Origin: a virus
Taxonomy: Duplodnaviria > Heunggongvirae > Uroviricota > Caudoviricetes
Strand: one strand, 5' to 3'
IMG/VR virus record: IMGVR_UViG_2563366973_000012
Coordinates: 1-34,201 of that record
DNA length: 34,201 nucleotides
The notes under the pieces are model-generated. The model saw only the letters and a program-made list of their open reading frames with translations. It ran no database searches and had not been told where the DNA came from. Positions within the stretch are counted from its first letter, which is position 1; every line of letters begins with the position of its first letter. Of the stretch, positions 3,238 through 28,007 are shown in pieces. The translations under genes and the position numbers were made by a program.

Positions 3238-3509
3238 GTATTCGTATTGAAATTGGCGAACGTTATGTCGTTACCAGTGACAGCTTTCAGTTTATTCTCC
3301 ACGAGAAAAAGAGAGCGGAAAGCGGTAAAAACGCCGGTCAGGAATGGCTGGCGGTGGTTGGTTATTACCCGAAATTAAGCCAGCTCGTTTCCGGCCTGAT
3401 GCATCACGATATTCTGACCGGAAGCGCAACGTCTTTTGCTGATTTAAACGCGCAGGTTGAGCAACTCAGCAAGCGTTGTTCAGAGGCTTTTGGCTCATAT
3501 GGCCGTTAA
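3234..3509 (+). CDS. Early-operon hypothetical protein (P2 orf83 position)
   Basis: Start overlaps the upstream stop (ATGA); position only. Confidence 0.5.
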   Translation: MSIRIEIGERYVVTSDSFQFILHEKKRAESGKNAGQEWLAVVGYYPKLSQLVSGLMHHDILTGSATSFADLNAQVEQLSKRCSEAFGSYGR

Positions 3510-5781
3510 AGCCTCCGGGCGTTTTGTCCCTCCGTCAGCATTTGCCGCAGGCACCGGTGAGACGTTTACCGGTGCTTATGCATGGAACGCGCCACGCGAG
3601 GCCGTCGGGCGCGAAAGACCCCTTACACGTGACGAGATGCGTCAGGTGCAAGGTGTTTTATCCACGATTAATCGCCTGCCTTACTTTTTGCGCTCGCTGT
3701 TTACTTCACGCTATGACTACATCCGGCGCAATAAAAGCCCGGTGCACGGGTTTTATTTCCTCACATCCACTTTTCAGCGTCGTTTATGGCCGCGCATTGA
3801 GCGCGTTAATCAGCGCCATGAAATGAACACCGACGCGTCGTTGCTGTTTCTGGCAGAGCGTGACCACTATGCGCGCCTGCCGGGAATGAATGACAAGGAG
3901 CTGAAAAAGTTTGCCGCCCGTATCTCATCGCAGCTTTTCATGATGTATGAGGAACTCAGCGATGCCTGGGTGGATGCGCATGGCGAAAAAGAATCACTGT
4001 TTACGGATGAGGCTCAGGCTCACCTGTATGGTCATGTTGCTGGCGCTGCACGAGCTTTCAATATTTCCCCTCTCTACTGGAAAAAATACCGTAAAGGACA
4101 GATGACCACGAGGCAGGCTTATTCTGCCATTGCCCGTCTGTTTAACGATGAGTGGTGGACTCATCAGCTTAAAGGCCAGCGTATGCGCTGGCATGAGGCG
4201 TTACTGATTGCTGTCGGGGAGGTCAATAAAGACCGTTCTCCTTATGCCAGTAAACATGCCATTCGTGATGTGCGTGCGCGCCGCCAGGCAAATCTGGAGT
4301 TTCTTAAATCATGTGACCTTGAAAACAGGGAAACCGGCGAGCGCATCGACCTTATCAGTAAGGTGATGGGCAGTATTTCTAATCCTGAAATTCGCCGGAT
4401 GGAGCTGATGAACACCATTGCCGGTATTGAGCGTTACGCCGCCGCAGAGGGTGATGTGGGGATGTTTATCACGCTGACCACGCCGTCAAAGTATCACCCG
4501 ACACGTCAGGTCGGAAAAGGAGAAAGTAAAACCGTCCAGCTTAATCACGGCTGGAACGATGAGGCATTTAATCCAAAGGATGCGCAGCGTTATCTCTGCC
4601 GCATCTGGAGCCTGATGCGCACGGCATTCAAGGATAATGATTTACAGGTCTACGGTTTGCGTGTCGTCGAGCCCCACCACGACGGAACGCCGCACTGGCA
4701 TATGATGCTTTTTTGTCATCCACGCCAGCGTAACCAGATTATCGAAATCATGCGTCGCTATGCGCTCAAAGAGGATGGTGACGAAAGAGGAGCCGCGCGA
4801 AACCGTTTTCAGGCAAAGCACCTTAACCGGGGCGGTGCTGCGGGATATATCGCGAAATACATTTCAAAAAACATCGACGGCTATGCACTGGATGGTCAGC
4901 TCGATAACGATACCGGCAGGCCGCTGAAAGACACTGCCGCGGCTGTTACCGCATGGGCGTCAACGTGGCGCATTCCGCAATTTAAAACGGTTGGCCTGCC
5001 GACAATGGGGGCTTACCGTGAACTACGCAAATTGCCTCGCGGCGTCAGCATTGCTGATGAGTTTGACGAACGCGTCGAGGCTGCACGCGCTGCCGCAGAC
5101 AGTGGTGATTTTGCGTTGTATATCAGCGCGCAGGGTGGGGCAAATGTTCCGCGCGATTGTCAGACTGTCAGGGTTGCCCGTAGCCCGTCGGATGAAGTTA
5201 ACGAGTACGAGGAAGAAGTCGAGAGAGTGGTCGGCATTTACGCGCCGCATCTCGGCGCGCGTCATATTCATATCACCAGAACGACGGACTGGCGCATTGT
5301 TCCGAAAGTGCCGGTCGTTGAGCCTTTGACTTTAAAAAGCGGCATCGCCGCGCCTCGGAGTCCTGTCAATAACTGTGGAAAGCTCACCGGTGGTGATACT
5401 TCGTTACCGGCTCCCACGCCTTCTGAGCACGCCGCAGCAGTGCTTAATCTGGTTGATGACGGTGTTATCGAATGGAATGACCCGGAGGTCGTGAGGGCGC
5501 TCAGGGGCGCATTAAAACACGGCCTGAGAAGACCAAACCGTCAGCAAAGAAACGGAAGCCCGTTAAAACCGCATGAAATAGCGCCATCGGCCAGACTGAC
5601 CCGGTCGGAAAGAATGCAAATTACCCGTATCCGCGTTGACCTTGCTCAGAACGGTATCAGGCCGCAGCGATGGGAGCTTGAGGCGCTGGCGCGTGGTGCG
5701 ACCGTAAATTACAACGGGAAAAAATTTACGTATCCGGTCGCTGATGAGTGGAGTTGGTTTTATTGTTATTCAGAGCAATAA
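3499..5781 (+). CDS. A: Rolling-circle replication initiator endonuclease gpA (HUH family)
   Basis: HUH motif HWHMMLF and tyrosine pair in GYIAKYISKNIDGY are present. Start placed at the ATG at 3499 (MAVKASGRF, the recalled P2 A N-terminus) rather than 3457, which would overlap the preceding gene by about 50 nt. Confidence 0.9.
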   Translation: MAVKASGRFVPPSAFAAGTGETFTGAYAWNAPREAVGRERPLTRDEMRQVQGVLSTINRLPYFLRSLFTSRYDYIRRNKSPVHGFYFLTSTFQRRLWPRIERVNQRHEMNTDASLLFLAERDHYARLPGMNDKELKKFAARISSQLFMMYEELSDAWVDAHGEKESLFTDEAQAHLYGHVAGAARAFNISPLYWKKYRKGQMTTRQAYSAIARLFNDEWWTHQLKGQRMRWHEALLIAVGEVNKDRSPYASKHAIRDVRARRQANLEFLKSCDLENRETGERIDLISKVMGSISNPEIRRMELMNTIAGIERYAAAEGDVGMFITLTTPSKYHPTRQVGKGESKTVQLNHGWNDEAFNPKDAQRYLCRIWSLMRTAFKDNDLQVYGLRVVEPHHDGTPHWHMMLFCHPRQRNQIIEIMRRYALKEDGDERGAARNRFQAKHLNRGGAAGYIAKYISKNIDGYALDGQLDNDTGRPLKDTAAAVTAWASTWRIPQFKTVGLPTMGAYRELRKLPRGVSIADEFDERVEAARAAADSGDFALYISAQGGANVPRDCQTVRVARSPSDEVNEYEEEVERVVGIYAPHLGARHIHITRTTDWRIVPKVPVVEPLTLKSGIAAPRSPVNNCGKLTGGDTSLPAPTPSEHAAAVLNLVDDGVIEWNDPEVVRALRGALKHGLRRPNRQQRNGSPLKPHEIAPSARLTRSERMQITRIRVDLAQNGIRPQRWELEALARGATVNYNGKKFTYPVADEWSWFYCYSEQ

Positions 5782-5897
5782 ACATCTGATTTAATTTGTT
5801 GCATAATAGTAAAATTGCTGTTTATCTGCATGTGTTAACTATTGATAATTATGTTGCTAATAATGTGTGCAAATTTATACTGAAAAAGGTGAAAACG
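5782..5897 (+). promoter_or_regulatory. AT-rich leader of the hotspot cargo gene with promoter-like hexamers
   Basis: TAAAAT at 5810-5815; TTGCTA-16 nt-TATACT at 5854-5881; RBS AAGGTG at 5886-5891. No experimental support; the hexamer choice is ambiguous. Confidence 0.25.
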
Positions 5898-7727
5898 ATG
5901 AATGATATCTTTGTTCTTACAAGGGAAGAGCTTGAAACACTAGATTATAGTGTTTTTATGCATATACCAGTTACATTTCATGCACATAAAATAAAAAAAT
6001 ATCTGGATGGGATTGCTGAATCATCAGAAAACCCCAAAGAGAAAAAATTAGCATCTCTTTTTGGTATGCTATATAGTTTCAATTTGCAAGTTGTTAACAA
6101 CACTCCATCATTTGAACCCCAAATGATTTGGGGTAATAAAAGATCAATATTGCCTGAAGATTTTGATGAGCAGGTGAATGACTGTCTTTTATATGTTTCT
6201 CAAAAAATAACCAATCCATTTTTGTTATCAAGAATATATGATGTTGTTTGGTGTAATAATCGGAAAAATAAAGACGTGGCAATTAAAGCAATTGATTCCT
6301 ATGCTGAAATGCTAAATATAGCAATTGAAAAGCTAATAATAAAAAACGAAAGCATGGATGAAAGTGATTTAAATTGCTTTATTTTTGCTCGTGATTATAT
6401 TGCTAGGGCTTTGCACATTAATAAAATGGTCTACCCTAGAAAATCAGAAGGAAACATGGCGATTAAAAATGCCATTCATTCTCTTTATAGTATTCAAAAT
6501 GAAAGATTAATCTTTGAAGGTTTCAATAATTTGACTTGGTTTATGGTGCGTGATTTTGATGGGTATAATCTGCAGTATGCGGAAAATGCTGAGAAGATGG
6601 CTGAGCAGCATAAAGATAAAAAATATTATGATGCTGTAAAATCACTTTATATGACAAGTGCAGTTATTTATGAAAAAAATGGTGAGTATGAACGTGCCAA
6701 GAGATGTAAACTGGCATCTGCAAATATTACTATTAAAGTTGCAACAGATCGACCTGATAATATGGGTAAGATCTCTTGGTTAAGAACAGCTATCTCTGAA
6801 TTAAGACAGTACGGTGGTGATAGCCAACAGATAGAAGATTTAAAGGAACAACTTGCTAATTTGAGAGAAGAAGTAAGGAGTGAATATGTCACTTTAAGCC
6901 ATTCTATTGATATTAGTGACTTGGTTGCTGAAAGTGAAAAAAAACTGACGGGGCGTTCTTTGCCCGATATATTCAAAGTTTTAATGAGTGAAACACCGAT
7001 TGAAAATATTGAAAGCATGAGGGAACAAGTTTTAAAATTATCAGAAAAAAGTTTATTCTCTAGTTTTGTTGGAACAGAAATTAATGATGAGAGTGGGCGT
7101 AAGATATATACAATCCCGCCGTTGGATAATAAAAAAGATATGAGTGATGATGTTGTTATTGATCAATATCTAAGAAATTTCGAGATTACTCATAAGATTT
7201 TTGTAAACGGTGTCTTTGAACCTGCTCGCTATGTACTTTCTCAAGAACATGGCTTGACGTTGTCAACATTCGTTAAATTGGTTACAACTAGTCCAATTGT
7301 CAAGCCGGAGTTTAGGGAGATTTTTAATTTGGGCTTTTACAAATTATGGCAGGGAGATTACATCAGTGCAGCTTATCTTTTAATACCACAAATGGAAGGT
7401 ATGGTTCGTTATTATTATGAGCTTAGCGGAAAGGATGCTACTAGATATTTGGATAAGGGATTAGAGGAGTCAACAAGTATTTCTCAGCTTCTAGATAAAT
7501 GCAGAGATGATTTGGAAAGTATCTTTTCTAAAAATCTTGTTTTGACTATCGATGTTCTTTTTAACAGAAAGAGTGGGGCAACCTTAAGACATAAATTAGC
7601 ACATGGTAATTTATATACTAATGCTTGTTACGATGAAACAACGACATATGCGTATTTTCATGAAAGGAGATCACTCAATAACTTCCATCGAGATCGGGTA
7701 ATAACATTTGAACAGATCGCTGAATAA
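5898..7727 (+). CDS. Hotspot cargo protein, 609 aa, unknown family; candidate anti-phage/abortive-infection effector with a C-terminal R-x4-H motif (RHKLAH)
   Basis: Long uninterrupted ORF with RBS AAGGTG 7 nt upstream of the ATG at 5898. Strongly AT-rich compared with the backbone. It sits where P2 carries tin/old. The last 6 codons and the stop lie inside the IS21 inverted repeat. Confidence 0.7.
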   Translation: MNDIFVLTREELETLDYSVFMHIPVTFHAHKIKKYLDGIAESSENPKEKKLASLFGMLYSFNLQVVNNTPSFEPQMIWGNKRSILPEDFDEQVNDCLLYVSQKITNPFLLSRIYDVVWCNNRKNKDVAIKAIDSYAEMLNIAIEKLIIKNESMDESDLNCFIFARDYIARALHINKMVYPRKSEGNMAIKNAIHSLYSIQNERLIFEGFNNLTWFMVRDFDGYNLQYAENAEKMAEQHKDKKYYDAVKSLYMTSAVIYEKNGEYERAKRCKLASANITIKVATDRPDNMGKISWLRTAISELRQYGGDSQQIEDLKEQLANLREEVRSEYVTLSHSIDISDLVAESEKKLTGRSLPDIFKVLMSETPIENIESMREQVLKLSEKSLFSSFVGTEINDESGRKIYTIPPLDNKKDMSDDVVIDQYLRNFEITHKIFVNGVFEPARYVLSQEHGLTLSTFVKLVTTSPIVKPEFREIFNLGFYKLWQGDYISAAYLLIPQMEGMVRYYYELSGKDATRYLDKGLEESTSISQLLDKCRDDLESIFSKNLVLTIDVLFNRKSGATLRHKLAHGNLYTNACYDETTTYAYFHERRSLNNFHRDRVITFEQIAE

Positions 7728-7841
7728 CATCGATGGAGATCACTTTTGACTCATTTTGTTATTCAGTGATCTCCATCAATGTTATTGGAACTTCACAGGT
7801 GTGTTGATCTGTATCTTTTGCCATTCCGGTAAAGGATACCT

Positions 7842-9383
7842 ATGCCAACAGTTCCAATTTCTATGAGAAAACTTAAAGAAATTCTTAGGCTTAAATACGG
7901 TGTTGGACTCAGCCATCGACAAATTGGTCGTAGTCTTGCAATCTCCCCTTCCGTTGTATCCAGATATGCTAATCGGGCGGCTCAACTTGGCATAAAGCAG
8001 TGGCCCTTACCTACAGGATGGGATGATACAAAACTAAAACATGCGTTCCTTCAGACCCAGGTTAAGATGAAGAAGCACTCTCTGCCTGACTGGGCTACAG
8101 TACACCGGGAACTGCGTAATAAATGCGTGACGCTGCAGCTACTCTGGGAAGAATACTGTGAGCGTAATCCAGGCGGTTTTTACAGCTATAACCATTACTG
8201 CCGGATGTACCGTGAATGGCTCAAAACCACTTCACCATCAATGCGTCAGGTACATAAAGCTGGCGAAAAACTTTTCGTTGATTACTGTGGACCTACCGTT
8301 GGCGTTACCGACCCTGAGACCGGAGAAATAAGAACTGCTCAGGTCATCGTAGCTGTTCTCGGGGCATCAAGTTACACATGGGCAGAGGCCACCTGGTCTC
8401 AGCAGCTTGAAGACTGGGTGATGAGTCATGTTCGCTGCTTCCAGTGGTTGGGTGGCGTTCCTGAACTTGTTGTTCCGGACAATCTGAAAAGCGCCACATC
8501 CAGGGCATGTAAGTATGATCCTGACGTTAACCCTACCTACCAGCAGATGCTTGAGCATTATAATGTCGCAGTTTTGCCTGCGCGGCCACGTAAACCGAAA
8601 GATAAAGCCAAAGCTGAAGTTGGCGTTCAGGTTGTTGAACGCTGGATCATGGCCCGAATCAGGCATGAGATCTTCTACAGCCTTGCATCGCTTAATCAGC
8701 GCATTCGGGAGTTGCTGGAAAGACTGAATAACAAAATAATGCAGAAGTTGGGTTATTCACGTGCAGAACTCTTCATCCAGCTTGATAAACCCGCACTGAA
8801 GCCTCTTCCTGAAGCCAGTTACAGTTACACCCTGGTGAAGAAAGTCAGAGTTCATGCCGATTACCACGTGGAAATCGACAAACATTACTACTCGGTTCCA
8901 TGTTCGCTGTTAGGCCAGCAACTGGAAGCATGGATCTCCGGAGAACTGGTAAGACTCTTCAATCAGGGGCAGGAGGTTGCTGTGCACCCGCGCAAGCGTA
9001 CTTATGGCTACAGTACCCGCAACGAGCACATGCCTGAAGCTCATCGACAGCATGCCACCTGGACGCCAGAGCGTCTTCTGGAATGGGCGGGGCACATAGG
9101 CAGTGAAACTCATAGTTATGTGCTTCATATACTGAACTCTCGTCCACATCCGGAACAAAGCTATCGCTTCTGCCTTGGACTCCTGAACCTTCATAAAAAA
9201 TACAGTAAAGCCAGACTTAATGCAGCATGTGCAAGAGCTCTGAAAACAAAGGTATGGCGTCTGTCAGGTATTAAATCGATCCTGGAAAAAGGTCTGGATA
9301 AACAACCTGTTCAGGATCCAAAACCAGATCTGTTATCCACGATGGAACACGAAAACGTACGCGGCAGTGAGTATTACCACTGA
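7842..9383 (+). CDS. istA: IS21-family transposase IstA (513 aa)
   Basis: N-terminal HTH-like region followed by an integrase/DDE-type core, immediately followed by istB; typical IS21 two-gene layout. Confidence 0.85.
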   Translation: MPTVPISMRKLKEILRLKYGVGLSHRQIGRSLAISPSVVSRYANRAAQLGIKQWPLPTGWDDTKLKHAFLQTQVKMKKHSLPDWATVHRELRNKCVTLQLLWEEYCERNPGGFYSYNHYCRMYREWLKTTSPSMRQVHKAGEKLFVDYCGPTVGVTDPETGEIRTAQVIVAVLGASSYTWAEATWSQQLEDWVMSHVRCFQWLGGVPELVVPDNLKSATSRACKYDPDVNPTYQQMLEHYNVAVLPARPRKPKDKAKAEVGVQVVERWIMARIRHEIFYSLASLNQRIRELLERLNNKIMQKLGYSRAELFIQLDKPALKPLPEASYSYTLVKKVRVHADYHVEIDKHYYSVPCSLLGQQLEAWISGELVRLFNQGQEVAVHPRKRTYGYSTRNEHMPEAHRQHATWTPERLLEWAGHIGSETHSYVLHILNSRPHPEQSYRFCLGLLNLHKKYSKARLNAACARALKTKVWRLSGIKSILEKGLDKQPVQDPKPDLLSTMEHENVRGSEYYH

Positions 9384-9394
9384 TACGGGATCCA

Positions 9395-10144
9395 ATGATG
9401 AATCATCTTTACGAACAACTGACCGCACTTAAACTCACCGGCTTCCGTGATGCGCTTAAAAAGCAACTTGCTCAACCGGGCACATACCAGGAGCTGGGCT
9501 TCGAAGAACGCCTGTCATTACTGACAGCAGAAGAACTAACCTGCCGTGAAAACAGGAAGGCAGAGCGTCTGATCAAACATGCACGGTTCAGACTTAATGC
9601 TGAGTTATCAAAGCTGGATTATCGTAACAATAGAGGGCTGGACAGGGCCCTCATCCGTTCACTCAGTCAGGGAAACTGGTTAACCCTGAAACAAAATATT
9701 TTACTGACCGGGGCCACCGGCAGCGGTAAAACGTTCCTGGCATGTGCACTTGGTCATAATGCCTGCCGACAGGGATACAAGGTCTACTATTATCGCCTTA
9801 AAGCGCTGATGGAACAGTGCTATCAGGGGCATGCTGATGGAAGATACAGCAAACTTTTGACCAGGCTGAATAATAGCGATCTGCTGCTTCTGGATGACTG
9901 GGGGCTGGAACCTCTCTCATCAGAACAGCGTAGCGACCTGCTGGAAATAGTGGATCTGATGTACCAACGAGGCTCAATCATCGTAGTGAGCCAGTTGCCG
10001 GTGGAAAACTGGTACAAAATGATCGGAGACTCCACACATGCGGATGCCATCCTAGATCGACTGGTTCATGGCAGTATCAAGATCGAACTTAAAGGAGAAT
10101 CAATGCGGAAAATACAATCTCCGTTGACCGAAGGAGATCAGTGA
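9395..10144 (+). CDS. istB: IS21-family helper ATPase IstB (249 aa)
   Basis: Walker A motif GATGSGKT and Walker B-like LLLLDDWG; directly downstream of istA. Confidence 0.85.
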   Translation: MMNHLYEQLTALKLTGFRDALKKQLAQPGTYQELGFEERLSLLTAEELTCRENRKAERLIKHARFRLNAELSKLDYRNNRGLDRALIRSLSQGNWLTLKQNILLTGATGSGKTFLACALGHNACRQGYKVYYYRLKALMEQCYQGHADGRYSKLLTRLNNSDLLLLDDWGLEPLSSEQRSDLLEIVDLMYQRGSIIVVSQLPVENWYKMIGDSTHADAILDRLVHGSIKIELKGESMRKIQSPLTEGDQ

Positions 10145-10467
10145 AGGTAATTTAAAAACGGTTCTGTGAAAGTGACACGAACCGATCTCCATCGATGTTA
10201 CTCACCGATCTCCTTCACGGTAATACGCAACATATGCATGCATCCTGATTTTCTTTCTGTGTGCTTATCCTCTCCTACCATATTTTGATACTGTTTTTGA
10301 ACAGGGCTCTGTTTGATAACGTATACGTTGAGGCATAAAACCTATGCATACTTAGCTGCATCAATTTGCACGAGGTATTTCAGTATGCATTTTCTGCGTA
10401 ATAGTAGGGATTGCTTGGTTTGGTAGTTGTAATTCAACTGCATTCAAACCGACCCATGAAGCGGGCG

Positions 10468-10486
10468 GGCGAGGCGGGGAAAGCAC
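10468..10486 (+). other. Candidate cos site (19-nt cohesive end, P2 type)
   Basis: GGCGAGGCGGGGAAAGCAC matches the P2 cohesive-end sequence as I recall it, at the expected position just beyond the 3' end of Q. Confidence 0.55.
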
Positions 10487-10628
10487 TGCGCGCTGGCGGT
10501 GGTGCTGATTTTATTTTTTCAGCGTCTGAGCGCGTCGTGATGGCGTTTAGATTGTTCGCCGGGGCGTTGGTGTGTATGCGGGCTGTTTTGTGCGGTGGTG
10601 AGCGTGTGAGGGCGTGATGACGGGGTGT

Positions 10629-10655: not shown

Positions 10656-11690
10656 TCAGCCGTTGTCAGTGTCCAGTGAGTAGTTTTTAAAGCGGATGAC
10701 CTCCTGACCGAGCCAGCCGTTTATCTCGCGGATCCTGTCCTGTAACGGGATAAGCTCATTGCGGACAAAGACCTTTGCCACTTTCTCAATATCACCCAGC
10801 GACCCGACGTTCTCCGGCTTGCCGCCCATCAACTGAAAAGGGATGCGGTGCGCGTCCAGCAGGTCTGCGGCGCTGGCTTTTTTGATATTAAAAAAATCGT
10901 CCTTCGTTGCCACTTCACTGAGCGGGATAATTTTAATACCGTCGGCTTTTCCCTGTGGGGCGTAGAGAAACAGGTTTTTAAAGTTGTTGCGGCCTTTCGA
11001 CTTCACCATGTTTTCGCGAAGCATTTCGATATCGTTGCGATCCTGCACGGCATCGGTGACGTACATGATGTATCCGGCATGTGCGCCGTTTTCGTAATAC
11101 TTGCGGCGGAACAGCGTGGCCGACTCATTCAGCCAGGCAGAGTTAAGGGCGCTGAGATATTCCGGCAGGCCGTACAGCTCCTGATTGATATCCGGCTCCA
11201 GCAGGTGAAACACGGAGCCGGGCGCGAAAGGTGTCGGCTCGTTGAAGGATGGCACCCACCAGTAAACATCCTCCTCCACGCCACGGCGGGTATATTTTGC
11301 CGGTGAGGTTTCCAGTCTGATGACCTTACCGGTAGTGCTGTAGCGCTTTTCCAGAAACGCATTACCGAACACCAGAAAATCCAGCACAAAGCGGCTGAAA
11401 TCCTGCTGGGAAAGCCACGGGTGCGGGATAAACGTTGAAGCCAGAATATTACGTTTGACGTAAATCGGTGAGCTGTGATGCACGGCAGCACGCAGACTTT
11501 TTGCCAGACCGGTAAAGCTGACCGGTGGCTCATACCATCTGCCGTTACTGATGCACTCGACGTAATCCAGAATATCACGGCGGTCGAGTACCGGCACCGG
11601 CTCACCAAAGGTGAATGCCTCCATTTTCGGGGCGCTGGCAGTCATTGTTTTCACCGCTGGCTGCGGTGTTTTCCCTTTTTTCTTACTCAT
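10656..11690 (-). CDS. Q: Portal protein gpQ (344 aa)
   Basis: Length and position match P2 Q; start ATG overlaps the P stop (ATGA). Confidence 0.9.
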   Translation of the reverse strand: MSKKKGKTPQPAVKTMTASAPKMEAFTFGEPVPVLDRRDILDYVECISNGRWYEPPVSFTGLAKSLRAAVHHSSPIYVKRNILASTFIPHPWLSQQDFSRFVLDFLVFGNAFLEKRYSTTGKVIRLETSPAKYTRRGVEEDVYWWVPSFNEPTPFAPGSVFHLLEPDINQELYGLPEYLSALNSAWLNESATLFRRKYYENGAHAGYIMYVTDAVQDRNDIEMLRENMVKSKGRNNFKNLFLYAPQGKADGIKIIPLSEVATKDDFFNIKKASAADLLDAHRIPFQLMGGKPENVGSLGDIEKVAKVFVRNELIPLQDRIREINGWLGQEVIRFKNYSLDTDNG

Positions 11691-25073: not shown

Positions 25074-25601
25074 ATGCAGCATTTAAAAAACATTAAGTCA
25101 GGTAATCCAAAAACAAAAGAACAATATCAGCTAACAAAGAATTTTGATGTTATCTGGTTATGGTCCGAAGACGGAAAAAACTGGTATGAGGAAGTAAGTA
25201 ATTTTCAGGAAGACACGATAAAGATTGTTTACGATGAAAATAATATTATTGTCGGCATCACCAGAGATGCTTCAACGCTCAACCCTGAAGGTTTCAGCGT
25301 TGTCGAGGTTCCTGATATTACCGCCAACCGACGTGCTGATGACTCAGGGAAATGGATGTTTAAGGATGGTGCCGTGATTAAGCGGATTTATACGGCAGAC
25401 GAACAGCAACAACAGGCAGAATCACAAAAGGCCGCGTTACTTTCCGAAGCGGAAAGCGTTATTCAGCCACTGGAGCGCGCTGTCAGGCTGAACATGGCAA
25501 CAGATGAGGAGCGTAGCCGACTGGAAGCATGGGAACGCTACAGTGTTCTGGTCAGCCGTGTGGATCCTGCAAATCCTGAATGGCCGGAAATGCCGCAATA
25601 A
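25074..25601 (+). CDS. G: Tail fiber assembly protein gpG (175 aa)
   Basis: Immediately downstream of H; size and position typical of a tail fiber assembly chaperone. Confidence 0.8.
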
Positions 25602-25623
25602 GTGATATGATCTCTTGTGTTAG

Positions 25624-25710
25624 TTAACATAGCTATAGTACAGAGTAAGGCCTAATCTGACAGTCCGCTCTGTGCTAGGAGCGGACATTATCAACATCAT
25701 GCTATGTTAA
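25624..25710. repeat. Nested inverted-repeat structure at the left edge of the G-FI hotspot
   Basis: Outer 10-bp inverted repeat TTAACATAGC (25624-25633) / GCTATGTTAA (25701-25710); inner perfect 8-bp stem GTCCGCTC (25663-25670) / GAGCGGAC (25679-25686) with an 8-nt loop. Confidence 0.4.
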
Positions 25711-25926
25711 TGTATAAAGTGAAGATAAATTGATATAATAAGGCCACCATGAATATTTCAGAACCTTGTCAAAAGGTTTGCACATACTCTAGTCTTGCAA
25801 TGTGTAGTTGATAGTTCCACTGAGGAGGTTCTTCGACATTCTTTATAAAAATGTACATTTTCATCAATAATAAGAGGTAAAAGGGCTTTAATAGTTTTTT
25901 GTGGATGTTATGTCCACTCATAAATT

Positions 25927-25955
25927 TTGAGATAAGTATTGAGTTGAGATAAAGT
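25927..25955 (+). promoter_or_regulatory. Candidate sigma70 promoter for the second cargo gene
   Basis: TTGAGA-17 nt-TAAAGT, about 35 nt upstream of the ATG at 25991; RBS AAGGA at 25979-25983. By eye only. Confidence 0.2.
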
Positions 25956-25990
25956 TAAACTCGTTAAATTCACCTTTAAAAGGATAAAGC

Positions 25991-26518
25991 ATGGACTGGA
26001 AAGATCTTGCATCAACCGCTGTGTATACAGGTATGACTGATGAAAATGAAAACATATGGGGACGTGTTGATGGGGTTGACGTTGCCTTCATAGGTGCCTT
26101 TCTTACTGCGCACTTGAGCCTTGAAAAGTATATTACTGATTATCTTGGATTAAGATATCCTTCGTTAGCTTGGGGTGATGCAAAACTCACATTTTCACAA
26201 AAAATAGCTTTAATACAACATGAGCCTGCAAAACCCCCTTATGATGAAATATATTTAAGAATAAAAGACTTTAACAGCATAAGAAATAAAATCAGTCATC
26301 AATTGAATTATCAGATTACGGATAAAGAAAAAAGTAAGTTTGTGGACTTCTACATGAAGATTACTAAAGCCAGTAAAACTAAACCAAATATTGATATTGA
26401 TAACATGGCGGATTTGTTGGATTTTTTCGTATCGATGACAAAATCCTATTTTGCTAGTGCTATTTCTTATTATCACTATAATAAAAAGGTTGCAGGTAAA
26501 AGTAATAAAATTGATTAA
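25991..26518 (+). CDS. Hotspot cargo protein, 175 aa, unknown family; candidate anti-phage effector with an R-x4-H motif (RNKISH)
   Basis: Clean ORF with RBS AAGGA; AT-rich; located where P2 carries Z/fun between G and FI. Confidence 0.65.
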   Translation: MDWKDLASTAVYTGMTDENENIWGRVDGVDVAFIGAFLTAHLSLEKYITDYLGLRYPSLAWGDAKLTFSQKIALIQHEPAKPPYDEIYLRIKDFNSIRNKISHQLNYQITDKEKSKFVDFYMKITKASKTKPNIDIDNMADLLDFFVSMTKSYFASAISYYHYNKKVAGKSNKID

Positions 26519-26691
26519 TAAAACTGGACTTAGGGATAATTAATATATAGACGTTCTATCATTTTTAGAGTGTGCGGCAGCTCCATACATTCATGCGGAT
26601 GTCAGCACCTCGCTCAAAGCAGACAGTCAGATTTGATAGCGTTTGGACTATGTAAATAGTCAGTTGGAAAATGAGTGAGTACAAATCAGGA

Positions 26692-26719
26692 CAGGCGGGC
26701 GAATTGCCCGCCTTTTCTT
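26692..26719 (+). terminator. Rho-independent terminator
   Basis: AGGCGGGC-GAAT-TGCCCGCCT hairpin followed by TTTTCTTT; lies between the cargo gene and the FI late operon. Confidence 0.6.
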
Positions 26720-26816
26720 TATCTGTTGTTTCATCCACTGACCAGCCAGGTCAAATAGCGCCTCATACTCTGCACAACAGAAAATAATTGCACCCATTAA
26801 CCACGGAGTTAAACGG

Positions 26817-28007
26817 ATGAGTGACTATCATCACGGCGTGCAGGTGCTGGAGATTAACGAGGGCACCCGCGTCATTTCCACTGTATCCACGGCCATTGTC
26901 GGCATGGTCTGCACGGCCAGCGATGCGGATGCGGAAACCTTCCCCCTCAATAAACCTGTGCTGATTACCAATGTGCAGAGCGCAATTGCAAAGGCCGGTA
27001 AAAAAGGCACGCTGGCGGCATCGTTGCAGGCCATCGCCGACCAGTCAAAACCGGTCACCGTTGTCGTGCGTGTGGAAGACGGCACCGGCGACGACGAGGA
27101 AACGAAACTTGCGCAAACCGTTTCCAATATCATCGGCACCACCGACGAAAACGGTCAGTACACCGGACTGAAAGCCCTGCTGGCGGCGGAGTCGGTAACC
27201 GGTGTTAAACCGCGCATTCTCGGTGTGCCGGGACTGGACACCAAAGAGGTTGCCGTCGCACTGGCATCAGTCTGTCAGAAGCTGCGCGCTTTCGGGTATA
27301 TCAGCGCATGGGGCTGTAAAACCATTTCCGAGGTGAAAGCCTACCGCCAGAATTTCAGCCAGCGTGAGCTGATGGTCATCTGGCCGGATTTCCTCGCATG
27401 GGATACGGTCACCAGTACTACCGCCACCGCGTATGCCACCGCCCGTGCGCTGGGTCTGCGTGCCAGAATTGACCAGGAGCAGGGCTGGCATAAAACGCTG
27501 TCCAATGTCGGGGTGAACGGTGTTACCGGCATCAGCGCCTCTGTATTCTGGGATTTGCAGGAGTCCGGCACCGATGCTGACCTGCTTAACGAGTCAGGCG
27601 TCACTACGCTGATTCGCCGCGACGGTTTCCGCTTCTGGGGTAACCGTACCTGCTCTGATGACCCGCTGTTCCTCTTTGAAAACTATACCCGCACCGCGCA
27701 GGTGCTGGCCGACACGATGGCTGAGGCGCACATGTGGGCGGTGGACAAGCCCATCACCGCAACGCTGATTCGCGACATCGTTGACGGCATCAATGCCAAA
27801 TTCCGTGAGCTGAAAACAAACGGCTATATCGTGGATGCGACCTGCTGGTTCAGCGAAGAATCCAACGATGCGGAAACCCTCAAGGCCGGAAAACTGTATA
27901 TCGACTACGACTATACACCGGTACCTCCTCTTGAAAACCTGACCCTGCGCCAGCGTATTACCGATAAATACCTGGCAAATCTGGTCACCTCGGTTAACAG
28001 CAATTAA
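26817..28007 (+). CDS. FI: Tail sheath protein gpFI (396 aa)
   Basis: Length and position match P2 FI. Confidence 0.9.
   Translation: MSDYHHGVQVLEINEGTRVISTVSTAIVGMVCTASDADAETFPLNKPVLITNVQSAIAKAGKKGTLAASLQAIADQSKPVTVVVRVEDGTGDDEETKLAQTVSNIIGTTDENGQYTGLKALLAAESVTGVKPRILGVPGLDTKEVAVALASVCQKLRAFGYISAWGCKTISEVKAYRQNFSQRELMVIWPDFLAWDTVTSTTATAYATARALGLRARIDQEQGWHKTLSNVGVNGVTGISASVFWDLQESGTDADLLNESGVTTLIRRDGFRFWGNRTCSDDPLFLFENYTRTAQVLADTMAEAHMWAVDKPITATLIRDIVDGINAKFRELKTNGYIVDATCWFSEESNDAETLKAGKLYIDYDYTPVPPLENLTLRQRITDKYLANLVTSVNSN

Follow-up and report, generated by a model that had tools for sequence, protein, structure and literature searches.

Does the long, AT-rich open reading frame (ORF) that lies between replication gene A and cos of a P2-like virus encode an undescribed anti-phage effector? 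The question was raised by a 34,201-nucleotide stretch of DNA (hereafter the window; IMG/VR record IMGVR_UViG_2563366973_000012, Caudoviricetes), for which a preliminary description, made from the letters alone, had named the product of this ORF as its top candidate for such an effector.

The ORF runs on the plus strand from an ATG at position 5898 to a stop codon at 7725–7727 and encodes 609 amino acids, with a ribosome-binding site (AAGGTGA, 5886–5892) located 5 nt upstream of the ATG. At the base composition of the ORF, a stop codon is expected about every 12 codons, so that 609 open codons are improbable by chance (~5e-24, computed at the gene's own base composition). The GC content of the ORF was 0.328, compared to 0.535 for the replication gene A (P2 gpA, 3457–5781), which directly precedes the ORF region. 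The gpA stop is followed by an AT-rich intergenic leader (5782–5897, plus strand) with three sigma-70-like sites and the ribosome-binding site; the number of promoter-like sites in the leader (three) was not above that in shuffled controls (1.7 ± 1.4). An alternative TTG start at 5796, which would give 643 amino acids, was rejected, as the ATG at 5898 is backed by both RefSeq and the family alignment.

Downstream of the ORF, an exact match to the 19-mer GGCGAGGCGGGGAAAGCAC, which we take to be the P2 cos, was found at 10468–10486 (plus strand) and forms the far edge of the hotspot, followed by the portal gene Q on the minus strand (10656–11690). The end of gpA and the positions of cos and Q place the ORF in the gpA-cos hotspot, where the preliminary description had put it. 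The gpA-Q locus of P2 was defined as a hotspot of anti-phage defence by Rousset et al. 2022 (PMC9122126), which agrees with the role assumed for it. The ORF is a real foreign cargo gene of this hotspot. No P-loop was found in its protein, as had been noted.

The preliminary description regarded the ORF as clean. Its frame is indeed open, but the 609-aa ORF as given is a chimera of a native gene and the insertion sequence ISEc12. This element (IS21 family, 2581 bp), 100% identical to copies annotated as ISEc12, occupies positions 7649–10229 on the plus strand, contains istA (7842–9383) and istB (9395–10144), and has termini that are imperfect inverted repeats beginning TGCGTATT. It is bordered by a 5-bp target-site duplication, ACATA, at 7644–7648 on the left and 10230–10234 on the right. 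Nucleotides 7649–7727 of the ORF come from ISEc12 and supply the foreign last 25 residues and the stop. The native part of the gene (5898–7648, plus strand) holds codons 1–583 plus 2 nt of a 610-aa DUF7380/DUF4209 (PDC-S39) protein, and the displaced native 3' end (10235–10316, plus strand) holds the third base of codon 584, codons 585–610 (ACILIFFLCAYPLLPYFDTVFEQGSV) and the stop, thereby encoding the native C-terminus ...YACILIFFLCAYPLLPYFDTVFEQGSV.

In-silico removal of ISEc12 and one ACATA copy restored the sequence of Escherichia coli Ecol_867 with 0 mismatches over 2187 nt. The native gene reconstructed in this way, as had been proposed (5898–7648 plus 10235–10316), encodes a product of 610 aa that is identical to WP_021535452.1. 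The 609-aa product was 100% identical to WP_021535452.1 over 585 residues, of which the last two (Y-A) are IS-encoded and match by coincidence. The exact chimeric protein is recorded in a single assembly, GCA_000351445.1, and the chimeric junction was absent from all 5426 complete E. coli genomes.

The protein had been described as matching no family, which proved wrong. The Pfam domain DUF7380 (PF24098) covers aa 4–184 (5907–6449, plus strand; E 3.6e-39, 134.8 bits vs a cut-off of 27), in which R82, D88, R112, D115, W118, Y135, and R170 are conserved in the family. A weak match to the Pfam domain DUF4209 was found at aa 524–584 (17.5 bits, E 0.0045), below the gathering cut-off of 22.3 bits. 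The protein also matched PDC-S39, listed by PADLOC as a candidate single-gene defence system (E 1e-83, with aa 7–587 on profile positions 8–590 of 615) and PHROG 5183 (1184 bits), and PADLOC gave no significant match besides PDC-S39. In RefSeq it carries the name "DUF7380 domain-containing protein", and in the GenBank phage record ON470601 it is annotated as DUF4209 domain-containing. NCBIfam gave no match for the protein, and among PDB sequences the family profile matched nothing below E 0.36. Homology to old, tin or ApeA was rejected, as there was no such match in Pfam or PADLOC. Searches of the literature returned no paper for DUF7380 or for ERMARD together with HEPN.

Word-indexed homologue searches recovered only 20–21 close enterobacterial clusters, and the wider family came into view only when 1.84 billion cluster representatives were searched exhaustively with a profile. 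This search yielded 3358 relatives at E <= 0.001, including 614 at E <= 1e-30, and nearly all of the best 150 were 600–640 aa long and aligned full-length. At 50% identity the family comprises ~3,400 clusters, most of which are full-length proteins (~620 aa). Among 50 diverse relatives, DUF7380 was found in all 50 and DUF4209 in 35 (E <= 0.001, best 9.4e-13).

The large N-terminal part of the protein is helical and TPR-like, in line with the preliminary description. DUF7380 is followed by a region of helical, TPR-like repeats and a linker (6450–7190, plus strand; ~aa 185–430) with a small beta-hairpin that carries the conserved residues D397 and G400. The retained part of the HEPN (DUF4209) core lies at 7368–7648 (plus strand; aa 491–583) and holds E500 (7395–7397) and R504 (7407–7409). 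The putative catalytic motif of the HEPN domain, R-x4-H, is the string RHKLAH at 7587–7604 (plus strand; aa 564–569), 45 residues before the C-terminus of the 609-aa product, as had been pointed out.

Conservation was assessed by aligning 152 full-length relatives, which share only ~20–35% identity with the query. E500, R564, and H569 were invariant (100%), and R504 (99%), P497 (99%), G560 (98%), and G570 (97%) were nearly so; H565 was conserved in 80%. The protein's other two R-x4-6-H strings were not conserved like RHKLAH in the same alignment. The string R564-H-K-L-A-H569 has the form of the HEPN motif (R-x4-6-H with a polar residue after R), and the domain shows the all-alpha, up-and-down helical bundle of HEPN proteins. 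Pfam DUF4209 corresponds to the "C6orf70" family of the HEPN superfamily (Anantharaman et al. 2013, PMC3710099), which occurs more often in bacteria than in eukaryotes; its members were predicted to be catalytically active and were described as fused to TPRs and located in operons related to restriction-modification. Judged from sequence and family membership, the C-terminal domain is a HEPN domain of the DUF4209/C6orf70 family, and the lone R-x4-H is a genuine motif of such domains. Since its R and H are invariant across such divergent relatives, the weakest-looking clue in the preliminary description was correct.

ISEc12 inserted after codon 583, inside the HEPN domain and 15 residues after H569. 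In the HEPN bundle, the displaced part codes for the final, conserved helix (580–604), which is among the best-conserved segments of the family, with Y584 (95%), A585, C586, W587, L592, P596, and L597 conserved in the 152 relatives. In the AF2 model this helix has pLDDT values of 85–93 and forms part of the bundle. The window's copy lacks an uninterrupted frame with all conserved elements, and it is probably inactive because ISEc12 replaced the last conserved HEPN helix. With an insertion sequence inside its HEPN domain, this copy is a poor candidate for an active effector, contrary to its ranking as the top one.

Nor is the protein undescribed. The native protein, WP_021535452, is listed in Table S5A of Rousset et al. 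(PMC9122126), and the same protein appears in Table S5B as P2-hotspot system #13, labelled "DUF4209", with 193 occurrences; the portion of the Table S5B sequence that was compared begins identically to the native protein (PMC9122126). A copy from the P2 locus of E. coli S88 was cloned with its native promoter as pFR103, "Putative HEPN" (Table S2B, PMC9122126). Over the part of the pFR103 insert that was compared, the clone starts at position 5698 of the window and includes the native promoter region, with 3 mismatches over 399 nt (5698–6096), and the S88 allele showed 3 aa differences over the 399 aa compared. The plasmid was assayed in MG1655 against eight phages (PMC9122126). Table S2B contains the "additional tested systems", while validated systems are given in Table S2A; only three of eight extra P2 systems were active (PMC9122126). 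The placement of pFR103 in Table S2B and not in Table S2A means that no protection was reported against the eight-phage panel. We found no validation of PDC-S39 in the literature, where papers naming it only list PADLOC output. The family is both PADLOC PDC-S39 and the "Putative HEPN" of Rousset 2022, and the gene is already known as a catalogued candidate (PDC-S39; Rousset 2022 system #13) with one negative test.

The gene was present in 55 of the 5426 complete E. coli genomes, always with at least 99% identity and always on the chromosome. In three E. coli loci that were inspected, it lay between gpA and the portal gene Q of P2-like prophages, and in Ecol_867 it was the sole gene between the two. 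In IMG/VR, relatives were found on 29 viral contigs, 22 of which carried a P2-type portal gene Q nearby, most of them also with gpA directly upstream of the relative. The proposed comparison of the A-to-cos locus showed that P2-like contigs carry divergent relatives beside Q, with identities to the query of 65%, 54%, 39%, and 32%. The 32%-identity subfamily occurs in some phages whose gpA and Q are 92–95% identical to those of the window; this subfamily is also PDC-S39 and corresponds to Rousset system #55 ("DUF4209", 76 occurrences).

We also examined 31 chromosomal loci, from Alpha- and Gammaproteobacteria plus one cyanobacterium. No neighbour gene was conserved across them, with no neighbour family found in more than two of the 31, and a two-gene system or a toxin-antitoxin pair was rejected on this ground; PDC-S39 stands alone, with no obligate partner. 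The immediate chromosomal neighbours included integrases, resolvases, relaxases, CBASS SAVED-HNH effectors, IetAS, SoFic, and other PDCs, and housekeeping genes were also among the neighbours of distant relatives. The GC content of the relatives was often lower than that of their flanks. The hotspot location, the swapping of divergent subfamilies, and the mobile and defence neighbours speak for a defence or mobile role, while the sole functional test found (pFR103), which was negative, and the housekeeping genes beside distant relatives speak against a defence role.

Compared to known systems, the closest counterpart is Rousset system #13/pFR103/PDC-S39, which is the same protein at the same gpA-Q/cos locus with a full-length HMM match. 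Unlike the published copies, which are intact, that of the window is interrupted by ISEc12 at codon 584, and no phenotype for system #13/PDC-S39 is reported by either Rousset et al. 2022 (PMC9122126) or PADLOC. Proteins of the C6orf70/ERMARD family resemble the window protein in having a C-terminal domain with R-H-x-x-A-H-G fused to TPR-like repeats, and the bacterial members were predicted to be active RNases in conflict-related contexts (PMC3710099). They differ in that the window protein falls just below the Pfam cut-off and the eukaryotic members are predicted ER-membrane proteins. Other HEPN effectors (Csm6/Csx1, RnlA/LsoA, the AbiA C-terminal domain, AbiV, and HEPN-MNT toxins) have no detectable sequence relationship to the window protein, and their sensors are CARF, a reverse transcriptase or an antitoxin, whereas the window protein has DUF7380 and a TPR-like region.

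The P2 genes old and tin are prophage-encoded exclusion genes at the same gpA-cos position, but their proteins are unrelated. ApeA is reportedly a single-gene HEPN defence protein, from work by Gao et al. in 2020. Like the window protein, it is a large single polypeptide with a HEPN domain that would act alone. The P4 hotspot carries ApeA-type genes, which are annotated there as HEPN_Apea (Rousset et al. 2022, PMC9122126). The HEPN_Apea/ApeA models in Pfam and PADLOC did not match the window protein at E <= 1, and the two belong to different families.

We consider it moderately probable that the native gene encodes a single-protein sensor and HEPN RNase acting by abortive infection, as a known cargo gene of the hotspot of which the present copy is most likely inactive; the RNase activity, the sensing and the defence role in this reading are inferred. 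The 610-aa chain would combine an N-terminal DUF7380, TPR-like helical repeats and a C-terminal HEPN domain (DUF4209/C6orf70). Its variable N-terminal two-thirds may sense an infection cue, probably a phage protein or a nucleic acid, and sensing would release or dimerise the conserved HEPN domain. The HEPN domain would then cut RNA via R564 and H569, helped by E500 and R504, so that translation would stop, the infection would abort, and the population of P2 lysogens would be protected from competing phages. Median identity to the native protein was 36% in the HEPN core and 18–21% in the N-terminal regions (two-thirds of the protein), a pattern of conserved core and variable N-terminal regions as in a sensor plus an effector.

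It is a more tentative suggestion that the DUF7380-TPR-HEPN family as a whole really does act as a single-protein abortive-infection system of wide distribution, and that none of the eight phages tested in 2022 supplied its trigger. If so, the family would be another immune module common to bacteria and eukaryotes, its HEPN domain being of the human ERMARD/C6orf70 family, and the variable N-terminal region would represent a novel class of phage sensor. Should a wider set of phages reveal a positive defence phenotype, a candidate that has long been listed would become a defined system, and there would also be a bacterial handle on ERMARD-type HEPN proteins. For the window itself, the outcome is a correction, in that the supposed undescribed effector is a catalogued candidate broken by an insertion sequence. 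The interest that remains concerns the family: it is large, has an invariant set of HEPN catalytic residues, is swapped as divergent subfamilies among P2-like phages, and is related to a human disease-linked gene family (ERMARD).

The protein could instead be a HEPN RNase with a role outside defence, for example in RNA turnover or stress regulation, in lysogenic conversion or as an addiction-type toxin, with its place in the hotspot reflecting easy exchange near cos. The lack of reported protection in the single published test is consistent with this, as are the housekeeping neighbours at some chromosomal relatives and the prediction that eukaryotic C6orf70/ERMARD acts in housekeeping RNA degradation and not in immunity (PMC3710099). 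Against it stand the patchy, low-frequency and horizontally moving distribution of the gene, the exchange of divergent subfamilies at a single hotspot, the presence of defence and mobile genes in the neighbourhoods, and the listing of the family as a defence candidate in PADLOC; an addiction-type toxin would also lack a conserved partner antitoxin gene. We regard a non-defence role as unlikely. Some HEPN domains are non-catalytic, and the HEPN domain here might bind a ligand or RNA as a regulator, with the protein as a scaffold or adaptor. The existence of such domains (PMC3710099) and the large TPR-like region, which is typical of a protein-binding scaffold, would fit this, but neither the catalytic R nor the catalytic H varies among the relatives, 80% of which have a polar H directly after the R; E500 and R504 are invariant or nearly so, and the family was predicted to be catalytically active by Anantharaman et al. 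(PMC3710099). A non-catalytic domain therefore seems highly improbable.

The last alternative concerns the C-terminal hydrophobic helix, which may be a membrane anchor. The protein would then be a tail-anchored HEPN protein of the inner membrane, as proposed for C6orf70 at the ER, and the insertion sequence would have removed the anchor only and no element of the fold. Residues 585–598 (ACILIFFLCAYPLL) are hydrophobic, Table S5B of Rousset et al. carries the annotation "1 TM" (PMC9122126), presumably from the helix at 580–604, and one transmembrane segment was described in C6orf70 (Anantharaman et al., PMC3710099). We judged the transmembrane reading of this helix unlikely because of the charged residue at position 591, and an anchor lost without damage to the fold appears improbable. 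Position 591, midway along the helix, was most often Arg (68 of 152 relatives) and was charged in 49% of the relatives, which makes a buried core helix a better reading than a transmembrane segment.

Three IMG/VR contigs from P2-like phages (L052, L053, and L061) clearly illustrated the exchange, at a single hotspot, of divergent alleles belonging to one family. In these contigs, gpA and the portal were 92–95% identical to those of the window, whereas the same hotspot position, at about 5989–7827, was occupied by a family member showing only 32% identity to the DUF7380-DUF4209 protein used as the query. This divergent member corresponds to system #55 in Table S5B of Rousset et al. 2022 and is also classified as the PADLOC candidate PDC-S39.

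The insertion sequence ISEc12, which cuts the DUF7380 gene in the window, was also found close to intact copies of the gene in two other genomes, E. coli CH436 (L036, 4183–6950) and TUM9975 (NZ_CP135664.1). In both genomes the element had the same orientation and lay shortly downstream of the DUF7380 gene, with 262 bp separating the gene stop from the istA start in CH436. Because ISEc12 was located downstream of the gene rather than inside it in these two genomes, at least two independent insertions of the element into this short stretch of the hotspot have taken place. In the window, the P2 cos 19-mer GGCGAGGCGGGGAAAGCAC was located, as an exact match, at 10468–10486, 152 bp past the displaced native stop codon of the DUF7380 gene. 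A mechanically called 68-aa ORF (10411–10617) overlaps this 19-mer and is probably not a gene.

The protein cluster P0014, with 225 member sequences, is represented by a 384-aa partial protein that aligned with the query over 63% of its length at 99% identity. One source gave Salmonella enterica serovar Infantis as its origin; in full or truncated form, the DUF7380 gene may thus be in circulation beyond E. coli as well. Two places on one alphaproteobacterial MAG contig (L032 and L033) each carried a short 262-aa ORF that matched the C-terminal HEPN part of the query only (residues 462–624, 36% identity). Downstream, the two places shared the same four neighbours, suggesting a repeated element that bears a stand-alone DUF4209 domain.

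A second AT-rich cargo island (GC 0.33–0.36) was located at about 25600–26800 of the window, in the P2 Z/fun position, flanked by a tail-fibre assembly gene (25074–25601) and a tail sheath gene (26817–28007). Its single ORF (25991–26518, plus strand, 175 aa) had no match in Pfam or PADLOC, and its sole match was PHROG 5483, a family of unknown function. The encoded protein contains an R-N-x3-H string (IRNKISH), and the ORF could represent a further small cargo gene of the HEPN-like kind.
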